This document shows, in pieces, positions 29,313 to 45,089 of a DNA stretch of 64,000 nucleotides. Each line of letters begins with the position of its first letter. The first letter of the stretch is position 1. The DNA lies in contig CAZDIP010000001.1 in assembly GCA_964505635.1 (NCBI GenBank), forward strand, positions 40,174-104,173. Reading direction: 5' to 3'. The translations under genes and the position numbers were made by a program. The notes beneath the pieces are model-generated. The model did not search any database, was not told where the DNA came from, and saw nothing but the letters and a program-made list of their open reading frames with translations. The DNA is from an uncultured Candidatus Saccharibacteria bacterium (lineage in GTDB: Bacteria; Patescibacteriota; Doudnabacteria; UBA920).

Positions 29313-29373
29313 GGGCAGCCACGTCGCTCGCGAGCGACGTGGCCAGCCTGCCCTGTCGTTCGAGAACGACAGG
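29313..29373. repeat. Nested perfect palindromes. The first is GCCACGTCGCTCGCGAGCGACGTGGC (26 bp) enclosed by GGGCAG/CTGCCC, and the second is CCTGTCGTTCGAGAACGACAGG (22 bp).
   Basis: Read directly from the sequence. GC-rich in an AT-rich intergenic region upstream of a GIY-YIG gene. Confidence 0.8.
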
Positions 29374-29415: not shown

Positions 29416-29676
29416 ATGTGGTATTTTTACGTTTTGCAAAGTAAAAACAAACCTGACTACTTTTATAAAGGATCAACAAACGACTTAAAGCGTCGTTTAG
29501 AGCAGCATAATAAAGGTGATGTAGATTCTACCCGCCCATACAAGCCTTTTAAGCTGGTATATTATGAGGCTTATGTTTCCGAGCATGCTGTGCGCTTTAG
29601 AGAATCATCCGTAAAAACCAGCGGGTCTGTTTCAACGCCTTTGATGAAACGAATAAAAGAAAGTTTAAAAGATTGA
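29416..29676 (+). CDS. GIY-YIG nuclease family protein (YhbQ/UPF0213-like)
   Basis: WYFYVLQSKNKPDYFYKGSTNDLKRRLEQHNKG...YKPFKLVYYEAY. Confidence 0.75.
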   Translation: MWYFYVLQSKNKPDYFYKGSTNDLKRRLEQHNKGDVDSTRPYKPFKLVYYEAYVSEHAVRFRESSVKTSGSVSTPLMKRIKESLKD

Positions 29677-32520: not shown

Positions 32521-33756
32521 CTAAATCGAGTAGGTGCGACCTTTGTGTTGGTCGATCAGGATCTGGAAGAGTCGGTGGCCGATCAATTCATGCAGCGTCA
32601 GTAGTTCCTTGTGCGCTTCCGTGATGGCCGCAACATCGCGCGGGTCAGAAACTTCGCCGCCTGCTTTCAATGCATCGGTGGCTTCGCGGATGACGGGATC
32701 TTCCAGGACTTCTCCCGCCATCTCCCAAAGAGTAATGAAGCGATCGACGGCGGTGGGGAAGCTGACAGCAAATACTCCCCAGTTGCTGGTGGTGCGCGGC
32801 GGCTTGTAGTCAAGGTTGAACGGTCCGTTGTAGCCGTGGCTGCGAAGCAGGATAAGCACATTTAGCCAATCGAGAGGATTCACCAACCCGACGGCGATGT
32901 CGACGTCGTGTTTGAGGCGATAGCCGTCATTGATGTCGAAGTGCCACAGCTTACCTGCGCTGATAGCGCGGGCAAGGGCTGCGCGCGGGGCGCCGCCCCA
33001 CATCAGTTCGTGCAAATATTCCGGGTTGAGCCCCACCATTTCGGGATGCTTCAGCAGGCCACTGCCGATGAAAGCGAGCATGGAGTCGGAAGTGGGCAGC
33101 AGAATTTCGGCCTGGGGTTCAAACGGCTTGGCCTCCATGCAGTGCTTCAGTGTGGGTTGCCCCAATTTGCCGGCGAGTTCAATATCGGCTTCGCAGGCGG
33201 CATTGAGACCCTCGGCGTACCACTGCAATGCTTGGGTCTCTTCCACGGCTCCCTGGATCTGGTAGCCGAAGGAGCCGGGCCAGTAAACAGCGAATCGCGC
33301 GCCCAACTCGTGGCCGATTTTGACAGTATTCTTGAGGCGCTCGGCGGCGTATTGGCGAACGTAGGGGGATTCCGCGGCGGGTCCGGCGGAAAACACGGCG
33401 TGGTAGAAAGTTTCGGTGGTGACCATGGAGCAGGCGAGTCCGTTGGCCTTAAGTGTGTCGCCGATGCGTCCGACGATTTCATCCTGCTTGCTGGTGAAGA
33501 GATTGCCCGCTGGGATGACGTCCGTGTCATGGGTGGCCCAGTAGCCAATGCCGATTTCGGCATAGTGGCGGATGACTTCTTCGAAGGTGACGGGCTTGCG
33601 GGTGGGGGCGTGAAAGAGAGCTTGGCCTTCATAGGCGCCGGCCCATTGGGGCCCCGTGATGAAGTACTTGCGGCGCTGGTCCGGAGAGTAAGAACCGCCG
33701 CACGAACGCACTAGGCGTTCGACCAGCGGAAGCTGGTACTCTAATTTAATAGGCAT
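32521..33756 (-). CDS. xylA: Xylose isomerase. The gene is GC-rich and its composition is foreign to this genome.
   Basis: MPIKLEYQLP...FITGPQWAGAY...WATHDTDVIP...AVYWPGSFG...MEAKPFEPQAEILLPT...LNPEYLHELMWGG...WHFDINDG...LDYKPPRT aligns motif-for-motif with class I xylose isomerases. A perfect SD AGGAGGA precedes the ATG at 33756. The ORF track extends to 33852. Confidence 0.85.
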   Translation of the reverse strand: MPIKLEYQLPLVERLVRSCGGSYSPDQRRKYFITGPQWAGAYEGQALFHAPTRKPVTFEEVIRHYAEIGIGYWATHDTDVIPAGNLFTSKQDEIVGRIGDTLKANGLACSMVTTETFYHAVFSAGPAAESPYVRQYAAERLKNTVKIGHELGARFAVYWPGSFGYQIQGAVEETQALQWYAEGLNAACEADIELAGKLGQPTLKHCMEAKPFEPQAEILLPTSDSMLAFIGSGLLKHPEMVGLNPEYLHELMWGGAPRAALARAISAGKLWHFDINDGYRLKHDVDIAVGLVNPLDWLNVLILLRSHGYNGPFNLDYKPPRTTSNWGVFAVSFPTAVDRFITLWEMAGEVLEDPVIREATDALKAGGEVSDPRDVAAITEAHKELLTLHELIGHRLFQILIDQHKGRTYSI

Positions 33757-33959
33757 AGTTTTCCTCCTATGCTTTTTGTTTTCCGTCTGTCTTCGGAAAG
33801 TAAATAAATTGCCTGAAAATAGGGAGACAGACCCCTTTAAGCAAAAAATCAAGCCAATGCTTGACCTTTTATCTTAATGGTTTTTTCGTGCCTTTGTCAA
33901 TTATGGTTTTTAATTGTGAGTAAAAATGTAGTTGACGATTTTGTATTAAAGTGTTAAAC

Positions 33960-36320: not shown

Positions 36321-37610
36321 ATGGCAAAAGAATTAATTGATCTAAATAAAACCATAAACTTAGGGTTTTGGCAGAAGTTGCCTAAACCGGTTTTTTGCCT
36401 TGCGCCTATGGAAGAGGTAACAGACGTGGTGTTTAGGGAAATGTTTGCGAGGTATAGTGGCGGTAGAGAAAAAAATGTTCTTCGACCTAACGGAGAAGAT
36501 ATTTTTTCTGATGAAAATAAAAATATTAGATTCTCCACAAGAGCCTGTCCTGAGCCTGCCGAAGGGTCGAATATTAACATTTTAAATAACTTTGTCATGT
36601 TTACGGAATTTATAAACGTAGACGGAATACTACATCCCACGGGTTTTGAGCGTTTAAAAATTGACTTGGAATATACAGAAAACCAAAGGCCAATTGTCGT
36701 ACAAATTTGGGGCACTGACCCGGAAAAGTTTTTTAAGGCCGCGCAGTTAATGGTTAAAATGGGTTTTGATGGCATAGATATAAATATGGGTTGTCCGCAG
36801 GACAAAGAAATTGGCATTGGCGCGTGCGCAGCTTTAATACGCAACCCAAAATTAGCATCGCAAATTATTGAAGCAACCATAAAGGGTGCCCGCCTGCAGT
36901 CGCCTTCGGCTCCAGCAAATGGCGGGCAGGCCGGCAGTTTGCCGGTTTCCGTTAAAACCCGTACCGGATATTCTAAACCTGAAACCGAAGCATGGATTGC
37001 TCATTTGCTTAAGCATGGCTTAGCCGCAATAACTTTACACGCCAGGACAAAACTGGAAAAAAGTAAAGTGCCGGCGCAGTGGGAAGAAGTTAAAAAAGCG
37101 GTTGATGTCAGAAATGCTATGCAATCGCAAACCTTAATTATTGGCAATGGCGATGTAAAAAACAGAGAGGAAGGTTTAAAAAGAATAGAGGAGACCGGCT
37201 GCGACGGGGTTATGATAGCGCGTGGAGCTTTTGGGCACCCATGGATATTTAGAACTATTGAGAGGGAAAACCCAAAAGAGGGTTTTTCCCTCTCAACGTC
37301 CCAGACTTCGTCTGGGACTGCTCTCCCTTTCCAAAGTTTTAATAGCCCCGAAGTAAATTCGACGGCTATTAAGTCAACAAAAAGTTATCAACCCTCAGCA
37401 AAAGAACGCCTTATGGTAATGCTTGAGCATGCCAGGCTGTTTGACGCAAAATTAGGCAAAGAAAAATCTTTTGTGATTATGCGAAAACATTTTAAATCGT
37501 ATTTAAGCGGGTTTGACGGCGCGGCTGAGCTTAGGGCAAAGCTTCTAGAAACAAAAAACCTTCAGGAAACAGAAGGTATTTTGGCAGAGTTTTTAAAAAG
37601 TTTTAGTTAG
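36321..37610 (+). CDS. tRNA-dihydrouridine synthase (Dus family), carrying in-frame low-complexity insertions
   Basis: CLAPMEEVTD..., IDINMGCPQDK and GCDGVMIARGAFGHPWIF. Extra segments ARLQSPSAPANGGQAGSLP and ENPKEGFSLSTSQTSSGTALPFQSF correspond to DNA hairpins. Confidence 0.8.
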   Translation: MAKELIDLNKTINLGFWQKLPKPVFCLAPMEEVTDVVFREMFARYSGGREKNVLRPNGEDIFSDENKNIRFSTRACPEPAEGSNINILNNFVMFTEFINVDGILHPTGFERLKIDLEYTENQRPIVVQIWGTDPEKFFKAAQLMVKMGFDGIDINMGCPQDKEIGIGACAALIRNPKLASQIIEATIKGARLQSPSAPANGGQAGSLPVSVKTRTGYSKPETEAWIAHLLKHGLAAITLHARTKLEKSKVPAQWEEVKKAVDVRNAMQSQTLIIGNGDVKNREEGLKRIEETGCDGVMIARGAFGHPWIFRTIERENPKEGFSLSTSQTSSGTALPFQSFNSPEVNSTAIKSTKSYQPSAKERLMVMLEHARLFDAKLGKEKSFVIMRKHFKSYLSGFDGAAELRAKLLETKNLQETEGILAEFLKSFS

Positions 37611-39625
37611 GGCAGGGTTGCTTTTAAAAGGCTGGAGTCATTTAAAATATAAACAGTTTTTGAAGGTTCATCCACGTAAAAATCTTTTAAATTGTTAAAC
37701 GCGGGATTTTTGTAGGTGGCAACAAGGTTGGCTTTTTTGTCTATAACCACAAGCCTGTTGTTTTGTATATCTAACAAGTAAATATTTTTCCAGTCTTTTA
37801 AAGTTTGAATTTTTCCGGGGCCGGAAAATTTATCAAATAAAAAAGGCAGGTTAAAGTCCGCCAGTTTGCCGGATTGAAATTTTAAAATATTATTTTGGGT
37901 AAGCACGTAAATACTGCCGTCAATTGCTAAATCCTGGGCACTTTCTAAAGTCTCATATTTTACAGAAATAACCGGTTTGGAAATTTCGCTGCCGACTAAA
38001 AAGCTGGTTATTTGTTTTTGCAGCTTATCAATTACATAAACCCTGGAGTTGGTGGAATAAAATTTAATTCCTCCGAAATCAGCTTCAGCCGGAACATTCT
38101 GGGTAAAAGCCTTGGAAAAGAATTTTTTTTCAAACTCCCAAACCAAAAGCGCGCTTTTGTTATAAATCACGGCTGTCTGGTCTTTTATATACACCGCATC
38201 CGCAATACTTTCCGAAGACATTAAAACCCCATCCTGAACGGTTTTATCCGATAAATTATAACTGACAATACTGTTGCCGGATTGGGCTCCCAGGAAATTA
38301 TTAAGCTTAAAAAGTTTTTGTCCCGAACCTAAATTACCCAAGTTGTTAACGGCAATCTCAGACTCTTTTTGGTAGCCTGAAGTTAAGTCGGTAAACTGTT
38401 TTTTTAAGGCATTTAAATTTTCTTTACCCTGCTCGCTTAGGCTCTCTTCCGGCATGGCCAGAAGAGTTTGGGCTTTTTGCAGCGCGTCCACCGCATTTTT
38501 TTCTTCTTTATACAAAACATAGGTTTCGGCATCGGACAAAAGTTTTTGGATTTCATTTAAAGACTGTTCTACCTCTGTCTGGGAAATTTTTGTTTTTTTG
38601 GTTTTTGCCGCCAAATAAATATTAACTATCCCGGCTAACAGCAGCAAAAAAATGGAGATAAACAAAAATTTTTTCCAGGGCGAGTAGGCCTTAAATTCAG
38701 CCAGGTTAACTTTTCTTTTTCCGGCTTCGTAGGTTTTTTCTACGGCTCGCTGGCTTTTGCCGAGCATGCTTCTGGCCTGGTCGTTTAAGCGTTTTAAGCG
38801 GTCAGTTATTTTGATTTTAGGCAGCTCAGTAGCCGGTTTGCGTTTGTTTTTGGCTAATGCCAGGGTATCTTTAAAAAAATTCATTGCCGAACTGAAAACC
38901 GCTAAACTTTTGCTCGGCGGTTCAACAACATAATTCTCCAAATCAATTTCTTCGTCCTGAATTTTGCCTAAAGGCACCTGCTGGTTTAAAAGTGTTGCGA
39001 AAGCAACTTCCGGTCCCGCGTTGTTTTTTAAAATCTCAATTATTTTTTGAGTTGCGGTTAAAAACTGATTTTCTTCCAAAATTTTTTTAAGCCTGTCCAG
39101 GGAAACGTGATTTAAAAGCTGCGAGGTAGAAAAAATTATAATGTCGTCAAGTTTAATTTTTCCAGTAGCCAGGTTTTCAAAAGTTTTTAGCGGGTGAGGA
39201 TCTTTGCTTGAGCAGGAAATGTCGGTGAATTCCCCGTTCCTGAACAAGAAAGCGGCAATTTTGCCCGCGGTGGCAATGTGCAAAACCCCATTTTCTTTTA
39301 CCGCAATAACCGCGCCCAGCTTTTCCAGCCAGTTGCCTTGCCCAAGACTAACCAGCTTGCCGACTTCCTCGTTAATTTCCGAGACCGCATTTTCAAAACC
39401 GGCCTTCGGGTTTTTTTTGTAGGCTCGTTTTAATGTTGCGCTTAGGCTTTGGCAGATTTGTTCGCATGACTCCAAGGCGGCTGGATTTAGCATCGGCAAT
39501 TCTGCCACTGAGTAAAGCTCAGCTTCGCTGCCAGGCGCTTTTTCTGCCGAGCAATGCACATAACTGCTGGTTTTTTTAAAGTTCCCCAGTTGGATTTTCG
39601 CAATTTGGCTTTCAGTTTTTTCCAT
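37607..39625 (-). CDS. Hypothetical membrane protein (672 aa; central TM, C-terminal beta-rich region)
   Basis: Large ORF. The N-terminal domain has weak PPM-phosphatase-like character. No firm assignment. Confidence 0.5.
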   Translation of the reverse strand: MEKTESQIAKIQLGNFKKTSSYVHCSAEKAPGSEAELYSVAELPMLNPAALESCEQICQSLSATLKRAYKKNPKAGFENAVSEINEEVGKLVSLGQGNWLEKLGAVIAVKENGVLHIATAGKIAAFLFRNGEFTDISCSSKDPHPLKTFENLATGKIKLDDIIIFSTSQLLNHVSLDRLKKILEENQFLTATQKIIEILKNNAGPEVAFATLLNQQVPLGKIQDEEIDLENYVVEPPSKSLAVFSSAMNFFKDTLALAKNKRKPATELPKIKITDRLKRLNDQARSMLGKSQRAVEKTYEAGKRKVNLAEFKAYSPWKKFLFISIFLLLLAGIVNIYLAAKTKKTKISQTEVEQSLNEIQKLLSDAETYVLYKEEKNAVDALQKAQTLLAMPEESLSEQGKENLNALKKQFTDLTSGYQKESEIAVNNLGNLGSGQKLFKLNNFLGAQSGNSIVSYNLSDKTVQDGVLMSSESIADAVYIKDQTAVIYNKSALLVWEFEKKFFSKAFTQNVPAEADFGGIKFYSTNSRVYVIDKLQKQITSFLVGSEISKPVISVKYETLESAQDLAIDGSIYVLTQNNILKFQSGKLADFNLPFLFDKFSGPGKIQTLKDWKNIYLLDIQNNRLVVIDKKANLVATYKNPAFNNLKDFYVDEPSKTVYILNDSSLLKATLP

Positions 39626-43572: not shown

Positions 43573-44625
43573 TTATGGTCTTCCTTTATCCCGTTTATTT
43601 TTTAAATAATCAACCGCAAAAAGTGCAAAGGGTAACTCTTTGGTGTTTAGGTGCAAGAGGCTAGATCGACTGCCCTCCGCAACAAAATCGAAAGGAATAA
43701 AATCTGCGGAGCCGGGTTCTTTTACAGCCTGTTTGCGAAGCCATTCCATAGTTTTTTCAAATACTTCCTTGGTCAATCCGCCTTCCCCAGTCCTTCTAAT
43801 AAGCTCAGCTGCTATTAGCGAGGTTTTTAAGAAGAATAGATTACGTTTGTATTCCTGACCTTTTCTAATATAATCGGGCTGCATTCTCATTCGTTTTTCA
43901 GACTCAAATAGTGAGTTTACATTCCTATCCGGGTGATGGGTTCTGGATTTTTCTAGATCAAAACCCCAGCTCGCTAATTTATGTGGATAATAATTTGCGG
44001 TTGCAGTAATCAATCCTTGAAACTTTGAATCATTGGCAATGATGCCTCTACGGCTTCTGACTTTTGTTAAAGTGTTTATTACTGCGGCCGGACCATGTAA
44101 AAATTTAAAAGCATGTTCTTTGTATACTTTTTGTAAATCGCCGCTAGAGGCCGCATCCTCATAAATGTTCGGTAATGGTCGCGTGCTATCTCTGCCAAGG
44201 TTGGGACTGGCTTTTGTATCTTTTATTTTTCTGGTTCTTTGTAAGAAACTTTTTTCTCTTCCCGAAAAAATCTTGGCTACATCTTCACTACTCGGTACTT
44301 CCAAACAAGAAGTCCAGTCACCTTTATAAAACCAATCTTCAATTAACCGAATAGCCGTGTTAATAAACCTCTGATCTTCTTTAGTTTCTATATCTACCTC
44401 GCCAAAGCTTTCGTATCTAAAAAAATATTTTATCCTATCCCAAATGTGGGCTTCTAAAGCATTAATATCCAAATTATCTTTTGGAAACGCCTTGACTACG
44501 TTGGCTAGAGAGGTTGCATAATTTCGAATAAAACTGCGCAAATCCAATTTTTCTGGCTCCCCTTTAGACTTAGTGTCGTTTTCAAGAAGATTTTGGTAAG
44601 CTTTGAAAATTTCAGGTCTTTTCAT
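43573..44625 (-). CDS. Hypothetical protein
   Basis: 350 aa ORF. No motif recognised. Confidence 0.5.
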   Translation of the reverse strand: MKRPEIFKAYQNLLENDTKSKGEPEKLDLRSFIRNYATSLANVVKAFPKDNLDINALEAHIWDRIKYFFRYESFGEVDIETKEDQRFINTAIRLIEDWFYKGDWTSCLEVPSSEDVAKIFSGREKSFLQRTRKIKDTKASPNLGRDSTRPLPNIYEDAASSGDLQKVYKEHAFKFLHGPAAVINTLTKVRSRRGIIANDSKFQGLITATANYYPHKLASWGFDLEKSRTHHPDRNVNSLFESEKRMRMQPDYIRKGQEYKRNLFFLKTSLIAAELIRRTGEGGLTKEVFEKTMEWLRKQAVKEPGSADFIPFDFVAEGSRSSLLHLNTKELPFALFAVDYLKNKRDKGRP

Positions 44626-44872
44626 ATGTTTTTATAAGTATAGCGTATAGTTTGAATTTCTGAAAATTTTGGCAAAAGTAGAATACCAACAGAGATTTAA
44701 ATGATTTTTGCGGCAGTTTCATCCCACAGGGTATGATGAAAAAAGTCGGGGAATCTAAGTAGTAAAGCCTGAAGGGTCTACTACGGGATGCAGTTAAACC
44801 CCAATCGGGCTTCTCAGCTCCGGTGTCATTACTTAAACAAAACACTTCCACCATTAAGGTGAAAGTTTTTTT

Positions 44873-44948
44873 GGTAGCGCTACCCCGCACAACTTTCCGC
44901 CAGTTGGCGGAAAGTTGTGCGGGGCGCAGCGGGGAATTCCCCGAACCC
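44873..44948 (-). other. Partial duplicate of the tRNA-Glu 3' end interrupted by a perfect 19 bp-stem palindrome (candidate att remnant)
   Basis: Plus-strand TGGTAGCGCTAC + [CCCCGCACAACTTTCCGCC-AGTT-GGCGGAAAGTTGTGCGGGG] + GGGGAATTCCCCGAACCC, compared with the tRNA-Glu plus-strand TGGTAGCGCTACGGGGAATCGAACCCCGA at 46774. Confidence 0.4.
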
Positions 44949-44989
44949 AAAACCATGAAAAAGACCCGACGCAAGGTCGGGTACTTTTC

Positions 44990-45022
44990 ATGGTAGACCA
45001 AGTCGAGACAGGTGGAAAACTT
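44990..45022. repeat. Left copy of a perfect 33 bp inverted repeat (ATGGTAGACCAAGTCGAGACAGGTGGAAAACTT)
   Basis: Exact reverse complement of 48617-48649. Verified base by base over 29 nt, with about 2 nt more on each side. Confidence 0.8.
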
Positions 45023-45089
45023 TTCTCGCATTGGTAAAAGAGATTTATAATTTGTTTGTTACCAAGCCTATTGTCCCTAATGCTACTTT

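Follow-up and report, generated by a model that had tools for sequence, protein, structure and literature searches.

The 64-kb stretch of contig CAZDIP010000001.1 analysed here, hereafter the window, contains a tRNA-dihydrouridine synthase (Dus) gene at 36321-37610 (+) that carries inserted, hairpin-forming DNA in three regions. The largest insert, at the linker position that we call site B, holds a complete copy of a ~125-nt element made of three hairpins, further copies of which lie in non-coding DNA of other contigs, and within this insert it is the nucleotide sequence and the base pairing that are conserved, not the peptide. We consider it probable that Dus has been colonised in frame, at permissive loops, by dispersed palindromic repeats, as with the Rickettsia palindromic elements (RPEs).

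Three insert regions in the Dus gene

The open reading frame (ORF) at 36321-37610 encodes 429 amino acids and matches PF01207 (Dus) with E = 4.9e-58 and 197.1 bits against a cut-off of 20.4, and its closest homologues by sequence come from Patescibacteria and Candidatus Doudnabacteria assemblies; the genome is patescibacterial and probably Doudnabacteria-like. With TIGR00737, the DusB equivalog, it scores 201.3 bits, below the 293.3 cut-off, and we therefore call it DusB-like by NCBIfam and leave the subfamily open. All columns that are invariant across 30 aligned homologues are kept, including the NMGCPQ motif, and by its sequence the gene is intact and full length. In an AlphaFold model with a predicted template modelling score (pTM) of 0.80, strands and helices alternate and are followed by a helical domain at residues 360-428, and two blocks of the protein, one for the barrel and one for the helical domain, align to the solved Dus 1vhn. 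The predicted local distance difference test score (pLDDT) exceeds 90 in the conserved core and falls below 50 only at residues 1-10, 49-84, 200-203 and 321-352, the last three of which lie in the insert regions. Dus homologues span 303-462 amino acids and have four insertion hot spots carrying many different inserts.

Site B (37254-37385, +) was delimited by codon alignment with the insert-free homologue L026, by the covariance model R1 described below, by the 1vhn alignment and by pLDDT. Here 44 codons (TIERENPK...STKS) stand in place of the GAA GAC AAC of L026, a net difference of 123 nt, in the linker that joins the TIM barrel to the helical domain, which is left unaligned between the two 1vhn blocks. 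Hairpin 1 (37258-37296, +; arms TTGAGAGGGAAAACCC / GGTTTTTCCCTCTCAA; family consensus TTGGAGGGGAAAACCC...GGGTTTTCCCCTTCCAA) has 16-nt arms at 37258-37273 and 37281-37296 that are 94% complementary with one bulged T, and hairpin 2 (37298-37318, +; GTCCCAGAC-TTC-GTCTGGGAC) is a perfect 9-bp stem, with arms at 37298-37306 and 37310-37318 and a 3-nt loop. These two hairpins encode ...ENPKEGFSLSTSQTSSGTALPFQSF... and jointly fold at -40.9 kcal/mol, where shuffled sequences average -19 (z = -7.1; 0/200 shuffles as good). They are followed by an unpaired C/T-rich linker (37319-37332, +; TGCTCTCCCTTTCC; family consensus TGCCTCCCCTTTCC) and by hairpin 3 (37339-37372, +; TTAATAGCC-CCGAAGTAAATTCGACG-GGCTATTAA), which has perfect 9-bp outer arms. 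The consensus linker TGCCTCCCCTTTCC plus CCAACGTC is the best-conserved block of the element (alignments A3 and A4), and hairpin 2 is the variable hairpin of the family, being different yet self-complementary in other copies (e.g. GTCCCGC/GCGGGAC, GTCCGCC/GGCGGAC and GTCCCCGCC/GGCGGGGAC). Compensatory changes across copies are likewise seen in hairpin 1, and in hairpin 3 double compensatory changes affect 9 of 14 pairs among seven Dus copies and the non-coding copy in L009. Hairpins 1, 2 and 3 are parts of one ~125-nt element, of which the insert of ~130 nt is a complete copy. The consensus core of the element is free of stop codons in all six frames, and in the window copy the sole stop-free sense-strand frame is the one used by Dus.

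We compared the gene with its relatives using the alignment of 30 homologues, the codon alignment with L026 and, for the distribution of inserts, the 120 best Dus homologues. L026 (protein P0002) is the syntenic closest homologue, with the common gene order L10 - L12 - Dus - 674-amino-acid gene - LexA, and it carries neither the site B insert nor a 42-nt insert at a second position, site A, both of which appear in the codon alignment as clean in-frame insertions. Of the 120 homologues, at least 10 have a related insert at site B, without exception in the same position and reading frame, and the three hairpins are also present in the DNA of six carriers (L001, L002, L003, L028, L029 and L030). 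On a neighbour-joining tree built from conserved columns the carriers of the site B element are scattered, and the nearest relatives of the window gene are without the insert. Furthermore, the carrier L003 and its sister L027 share 86% nucleotide identity and have unrelated hairpin inserts at site B, that of L027 (P0088) being a perfect 8-bp hairpin, GTCCCGAT-AGCA-ATCGGGAC, and other homologues have still other repeat-like peptides there. Judging from these alignments, the insert sites are hot spots with turnover and not a conserved domain.

Read as DNA, the seven Dus copies are all in frame and stop-free, and the length differences among the four that were codon-aligned are whole codons, which indicates that the insert is read through and gives rise to what the structural model predicts to be a disordered loop. 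Being structured, and placed at a conserved site of a gene that is itself conserved, the insert could also be an intervening sequence, intron-like or an intein, that is removed before or after translation. This is highly improbable, as such strict keeping of the frame would be unnecessary if the insert were excised from RNA, and the insert is in addition far too short for a group I/II intron or an intein and gave no Rfam intron or ribozyme match. A tRNA-like fold, along with intein and intron, was ruled out by size, stem lengths and strict frame maintenance. The probability that we are dealing with an assembly artefact or a decaying pseudogene is negligible, since the same element was assembled independently at the same site in at least seven unrelated samples, and the window gene has a full-length ORF, intact invariant residues and a confident model core.

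Site A (36888-36929, +) is a 42-nt insert of 14 codons, ARLQSPSAPANGGQ, which forms a GC-rich palindrome with arms TGCCCGCC and GGCGGGCA. It lies in the loop between helix 176-191 and strand 209-216, corresponding to a gap before the VKTR strand in the alignment to 1vhn, and the pLDDT here drops to 59 at residues 191-200 and is below 50 at 200-203. A wider palindrome has 11-nt arms at 36887-36897 and 36926-36936 that are 91% complementary. In the codon alignment site A is absent from L026, L003 and L027, while the close relative P0005 has nearly the same insert; related ARLRQGFGGQAG forms are found there in P0033, P0039 and P0098, and unrelated inserts occupy the site in many other homologues. 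With regard to a target-site duplication, site A has a partial repeat (GCC(C)GCC..CAG / GCCGGCAG). Separately, we observed that 36899-36913 (GTCGCCTTCGGCTCC) is identical at 14 of 15 positions to the hairpin-2 region of site B in L002 (GTCGCCTTTGGCTCC), which may reflect kinship or coincidence.

The third region, the N-terminal variable loop at residues 46-88 (36456-36584, +), is a nest of inserted sequence opposite gaps or unrelated sequence in homologues. It includes an AT-rich inverted repeat (36492-36536) and a half-palindrome, CCTGAGCCTGCCGAAGGG, at 36549-36566 that occurs just once in the window; its full form with both arms is present in the same loop of L001, with one arm outside Dus in L026. 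We also noticed that 20311-20327 of L026 carries CCTGAGCCTGTCGAAGG, a half-palindrome of the type found in this loop, in a non-coding stretch ending ...GGTCGATTCCCCGTAGCGCTACCA, which looks like a putative tmRNA gene. According to the secondary structure of the model, the N-terminal insert and site A both sit in loops leading from a helix to the next strand, as does the fourth hot spot of the family, and in a TIM barrel such loops face away from the active site. The fourth hot spot was seen in homologues P0042, P0050, P0101 and P0107 only (alignment A1, columns ~405-445, between RN and TLIIGNGD, after window residue 265), and its peptides resemble translations of repeat elements that are presumably common.

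A preliminary description of the window, made from the sequence alone, had reported two GC-rich hairpin insertions in Dus, placing at 37260-37294 and 37298-37318 the pair of hairpins that we find there, the first as a ~14-bp stem where we obtain 16-nt arms and the second, a perfect 9-bp stem with a TTC loop, just as it is. The inserts are indeed in frame, but their number needs correction, because these hairpins and a third one that had gone unnoticed make up a single element, and the gene has three insert regions. The further semi-palindrome proposed at about 36893-36950 is real but weaker, with 36885-36955 folding at z = -2.3 (2/200 shuffles as good), and part of its second hairpin (GCCGGCAGTTTGCCGG) is native sequence, encoding an AGSLPV that aligns to AGSLPV in L026. 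Likewise, the label GC-rich suits the site A palindrome but less so the site B insert, which has just 49% G+C in the window and 51-63% in other copies. Sharing of these segments among orthologous Dus proteins had been named as an argument against insertion, and a minority do share them, namely the site B carriers counted above and P0005 at site A; however, their occurrence is patchy, and even sisters as close as L003 and L027 differ.

Constraint on nucleotide sequence and pairing

We compared the seven Dus copies pairwise by codon position. In the site B insert, identity at positions 1, 2 and 3 was 0.60, 0.68 and 0.63, compared with 0.72, 0.82 and 0.43 in the rest of the Dus gene, giving a third-position excess in the insert of 0.20 (bootstrap 95% confidence interval 0.115-0.284). 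The insert has no codon periodicity, and its amino acids are less alike among the copies (identity 0.46) than those of the remaining protein (0.68). Pairing was examined in an alignment of the seven Dus copies with the non-coding copy of L009, in which 93% of cells were paired and 13 of 27 pairs showed changes on both sides. None of 500 shuffles matched the observed percentage of pairing, either of two double-change counts or the covariation score, and 448 of 500 matched the count of further pair types; controls in which the pairing was slid were just 29-62% paired. The lack of codon periodicity together with the compensatory pair changes demonstrates that a nucleic-acid structure is conserved in the insert and not the peptide. 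Compensation was nearly all Watson-Crick, with 24 double-change cells against 3 G-U cells, which would fit a palindrome maintained at the DNA level, use of both strands, or self-templated correction of near-palindromes.

These results bear on whether the inserts could be lineage-specific functional extensions of the peptide, for example a loop binding tRNA or a partner, with the hairpins incidental. A motif, GGENPxEGFPLPTSP..ASPFQSF..REVNS, does recur at the same site in at least ten homologues, as such an extension would lead one to expect. None-the-less, we regard this explanation as very unlikely, because third positions are more conserved in the insert than elsewhere and the amino acids less so, the same nucleotide sequence occurs in non-coding DNA, and the segment is predicted to be disordered and is missing from the nearest relatives.

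Copies of the element outside Dus

A pattern made from hairpin 1 and the block that follows it was run on genome assemblies and found five true copies, four on Saccharibacteria contigs (two from one metagenome-assembled genome, MAG) and one in Patescibacteria UBA926. The covariance model R1 was built from nine copies, which themselves score 77-94 bits. Applied to the window, R1 gave 76.8 bits at 37254-37336, its only strong (>21-bit) plus-strand match, filters off included, and with 69 bits it picked out one more copy, in L011. In metagenomes a second pattern returned nine more matches at 59-92 bits that represent six distinct loci, and one further copy (63 bits) lies in L031, a contig of ~60% G+C that was reached via a spurious ORF in a profile search with the insert peptides. 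Because the core of the larger insert occurs in non-coding DNA, it is a dispersed element and not a Dus-specific domain. The suggestion in the preliminary description that palindromic DNA has entered coding sequence with the frame unbroken is therefore borne out, L026 being without the segments, the gene being intact and the core being found elsewhere in non-coding DNA. The search for the hairpins beyond Dus that it had proposed led to these copies on other contigs, and within the window only the Dus copy is convincing.

The genes beside the copies were confirmed by Pfam or Rfam. Copies adjoin mraZ in L005, L007 (= L022 = L024) and L015 (= L017), nusA in L018 (= L025) and at the second copy of L011, rpsB (ribosomal protein S2) in L009, a methyltransferase gene at the other copy of L011, and tmRNA, with SmpB, in L031. 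One copy lies between groEL and metK (L020), one is upstream of dnaE, encoding DNA polymerase III alpha (L012), and two have neighbours that were not identified (L008 and L014). One Saccharibacteria MAG has at least three copies, in L005 and the two in L011. The latter two, which belong to one genome, share a hairpin-3 type from which the orthologous nusA copy in L018 differs, and this sharing suggests spread within the genome or gene conversion.

Outside Dus the position of the element is often regular. In eight distinct contexts its conserved TTGG, the 5' end of the element in Dus-sense orientation, lies 7-9 nt from the 5' end of a gene on the opposite strand, taken as the start codon or the mature tmRNA 5' end. 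These contexts involve mraZ in three lineages, nusA in two, and rpsB, the methyltransferase gene and tmRNA in one each, and they are found in L005, L007, L009, L011 (two copies), L015, L018 and L031, the distance to the mature tmRNA 5' end in L031 being 7 nt. The copies in L012 and L020 are turned the other way and have no fixed spacing. As tmRNA shows the same geometry, the regularity does not concern translation initiation as such. A Shine-Dalgarno sequence was rejected as the cause of the spacing because the gene-facing strand reads CCTCC, not GGAGG, and most genes there are without a Shine-Dalgarno; tmRNA, which has the same spacing but no start codon at its 5' end, rules it out as well. 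We noted that the reverse-complement linker, GGAAAGGGGAGG, resembles an extended Shine-Dalgarno but is ~65 nt from the start codon. Taking the end of the element for a -10 box (CAAAGT / CAAAAT) works for some copies but fails for those of L031 and L015; inspection of the copies gave no consistent -35, and promoter prediction returned nothing near the mraZ copy in L007. At both nusA loci (L011, 6461-6536, +; L018, 3790-3715, -) a near-consensus promoter-like TTGACA-16-TAAAAT (11 matches out of 12) and then a terminator-like hairpin precede the element in gene sense.

Rfam scans of the Dus gene, the window and L005, L007-L009, L011, L012, L014, L020 and L031 returned no family for the element. 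Matches overlapping it reached at most 19.6 bits, against gathering thresholds of 39-80, in the window (E up to 10) and in L005-L011 (E up to 1), and there were none over it at E up to 0.1 in L012, L014, L020 and L031. A pattern scan of viral contigs and blastn against phage records likewise gave nothing for the element, so there is no sign of a phage origin. A weak R1 match at 39097-39168 of the window is AT-rich with no hairpin and was attributed to chance, as were pattern matches in L006 and L010 (in a conserved cyanobacterial ORF) and in L013, L016, L019, L021 and L023, which have no hairpins and score at most 17.2 bits with R1.

The other strong hairpins of the window are not copies of the element, R1 having no match there, and two such sites were inspected. 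One is a perfect 19-bp GC-rich hairpin at 44883-44924 (CCCCGCACAACTTTCCGCC-AGTT-GGCGGAAAGTTGTGCGGGG), inside a doubtful 139-amino-acid ORF (44612-45031, minus) between two minus-strand genes, and the other, at 29318-29373, is a tandem pair of perfect hairpins, GC-rich and of 11 bp and 9 bp, in non-coding DNA upstream of a small ORF that starts near 29417 and by eye resembles a GIY-YIG protein. In addition, a 443-amino-acid ORF at 32521-33852 (-) has ~61-63% G+C against a window mean of 39.6% and may be horizontally acquired. Two adjoining tRNA-like matches lie at 957-1101, of which the tRNA-Gly(CCC) at 1028-1101 was called by both tools and the weaker Rfam match at 957-1021 was not called by ARAGORN.

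Origin of the element and comparison with known systems

In the explanation that we favour, the element belongs to a family dispersed among Patescibacteria and normally residing in non-coding DNA, which may spread, or may once have spread, as a mobile or recombining repeat that is not autonomous. Within genes, survival would be limited to copies that landed in permissive loops, and their hairpins would be maintained because the element requires them or through self-templated correction of near-palindromes. Several observations weigh against colonisation by such a repeat. No transposase was identified, although no scan aimed at such genes was made; comparison of the element's ends by eye in the window, L009 and L011 gave no convincing terminal inverted repeats, its 3' boundary being undefined; and when site B is codon-aligned with the empty site, its junctions show no evident target-site duplication. 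Mobility is thus an inference. The copy number is also low, with one copy in the 64 kb of the window and, by R1, no further one in the related loci L003 (20 kb) and L026 (21 kb). Peptide searches found no second protein family hosting the element in frame, these being low-powered for a low-complexity query of ~40 amino acids: a six-frame concatenated query and the insert alignment had no match in a set of 5.8 billion proteins, and a search of a representative library with the insert peptide returned only one Dus fragment and one spurious ORF. Given this low power, such nulls are not evidence of absence. Lastly, the 7-9 nt spacing outside Dus suggests a functional or targeted element, and the common site, frame and orientation of the Dus copies agree better with a single ancient insertion and subsequent losses than with insertion several times over. 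Such a history would mean that the hairpins have been retained over deep divergence, which would point to function and not to passive selfish DNA.

The main competing explanation is that selection acts on the element as a functional nucleic-acid module of three hairpins and that the Dus copy is kept for its structure. Acting in the orientation opposite to that of Dus, it could be a leader, promoter-proximal or processing element upstream of housekeeping genes and tmRNA, and inside Dus it could serve as an antisense or internal regulatory signal, a site of mRNA stability or processing, or a translational pause at the domain boundary, which is exactly where the insert sits. Such a module would account for the spacing of TTGG in the eight contexts and for the unpaired CCAACGTC and TGCCTCCCCTTTCC being the most conserved parts, nearly identical between Dus copies and Saccharibacteria contigs. 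It is also consistent with the covariation of all three hairpins, with third positions far more conserved in the insert than in the rest of the gene, with pairing that is retained across deeply diverged Dus genes, and with the promoter-like site and terminator-like hairpin before the element at both nusA loci. However, orientation relative to neighbouring genes is mixed, L012 and L020 being opposite and without fixed spacing, the closest Dus relatives do without the element, and a sister gene has an unrelated hairpin in its place. Moreover, almost pure Watson-Crick compensation is not what an RNA working from a single strand usually shows, Rfam yields no family for the element, and neither a -10 nor a Shine-Dalgarno reading fits all copies. 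On balance we hold this explanation to be rather unlikely.

A related reading can be put forward tentatively, as a rather unlikely possibility: the element would be an undescribed three-hairpin module, deeply conserved across Patescibacteria and normally placed 7-9 nt upstream of the 5' ends of mraZ, nusA, rpsB and tmRNA, where it could act as a leader, promoter-proximal or integration-target signal, and in Dus it would have become embedded in frame under selection on its structure. If this were true, the Dus stretch would be dual-coding, specifying a disordered peptide together with a conserved DNA or RNA structure. The position of the element beside these gene 5' ends is testable in cultivable Saccharibacteria.

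Colonisation of Dus by palindromic repeats, the explanation we prefer, would extend the Rickettsia finding of selfish palindromic DNA in coding genes to the candidate phyla radiation and would explain the highly variable loop lengths of these Dus proteins. Repeat-derived disordered segments of this kind can distort gene and domain annotation in these genomes. The analysis further provides a covariance model with which to search for this structured element, which has no entry in Rfam yet is conserved between distant Patescibacteria, and codon-position identity combined with Watson-Crick-only covariation makes the insert a clean example of nucleotide-level constraint within an ORF. A full-text search of the literature found no description of such elements in Patescibacteria.

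Among known systems, putative mobile promoters and conserved 5' leader RNA motifs are homologous non-coding sequences upstream of non-homologous genes, and the element resembles them in lying directly upstream of the non-homologous mraZ, nusA, rpsB and tmRNA. In contrast to them it has no consistent -35/-10 or Shine-Dalgarno signal, and some of its copies are turned the other way round or lie within an ORF. A REP is one palindrome of 20-40 nt that lies outside genes, usually at their 3' ends, and is present in high copy number. The element shares with the REP/BIME system (RAYT, Y1 HUH) the form of dispersed hairpins that are GC-rich relative to the genome, and its Watson-Crick perfection would fit recognition of single-stranded DNA hairpins, but it is a ~125-nt three-hairpin unit found mostly beside 5' ends and once inside an ORF.

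MITEs, or miniature inverted-repeat transposable elements, can carry promoter, terminator or processing signals. Like those of the Correia/NEMIS, ERIC, BOX and RUP kinds, the element is short, structured and non-autonomous, and it is intergenic and sometimes intragenic. However, no terminal inverted repeats or target-site duplications were recognised in it by eye, it has no known parent insertion sequence, and its conservation is not confined to a species or genus but extends to different classes of a phylum. MITEs and small mobile sequences of bacteria are reviewed in PMC10969869 and PMC2229807, the former of which notes that such sequences can create in-frame fusions.

The RPEs (Ogata et al. 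2000, in the summary of PMC10969869), which enter unrelated housekeeping ORFs in frame, are the closest likeness. Both are palindromic repeats of ~100-150 bp that occur between genes and in frame inside ORFs of a small, host-dependent genome, in both the added peptide is compatible with the fold, and in both some insertions are common to orthologues and others are not. This resemblance is functional only: the element belongs to another phylum, no sequence resemblance was recognised, and the two are likened by description. The element has so far been found in frame in one protein family, Dus, and at low copy number, and it consists of a fixed order of three hairpins joined by highly conserved unpaired linkers; its 7-9 nt spacing to gene 5' ends has no counterpart for RPEs in the text available of PMC10969869. 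We therefore claim no membership of the RPE, MITE or REP families for the element; the phenomenon itself is known, while this element family, and the occurrence of such repeats within the candidate phyla radiation, seem not to have been described before.

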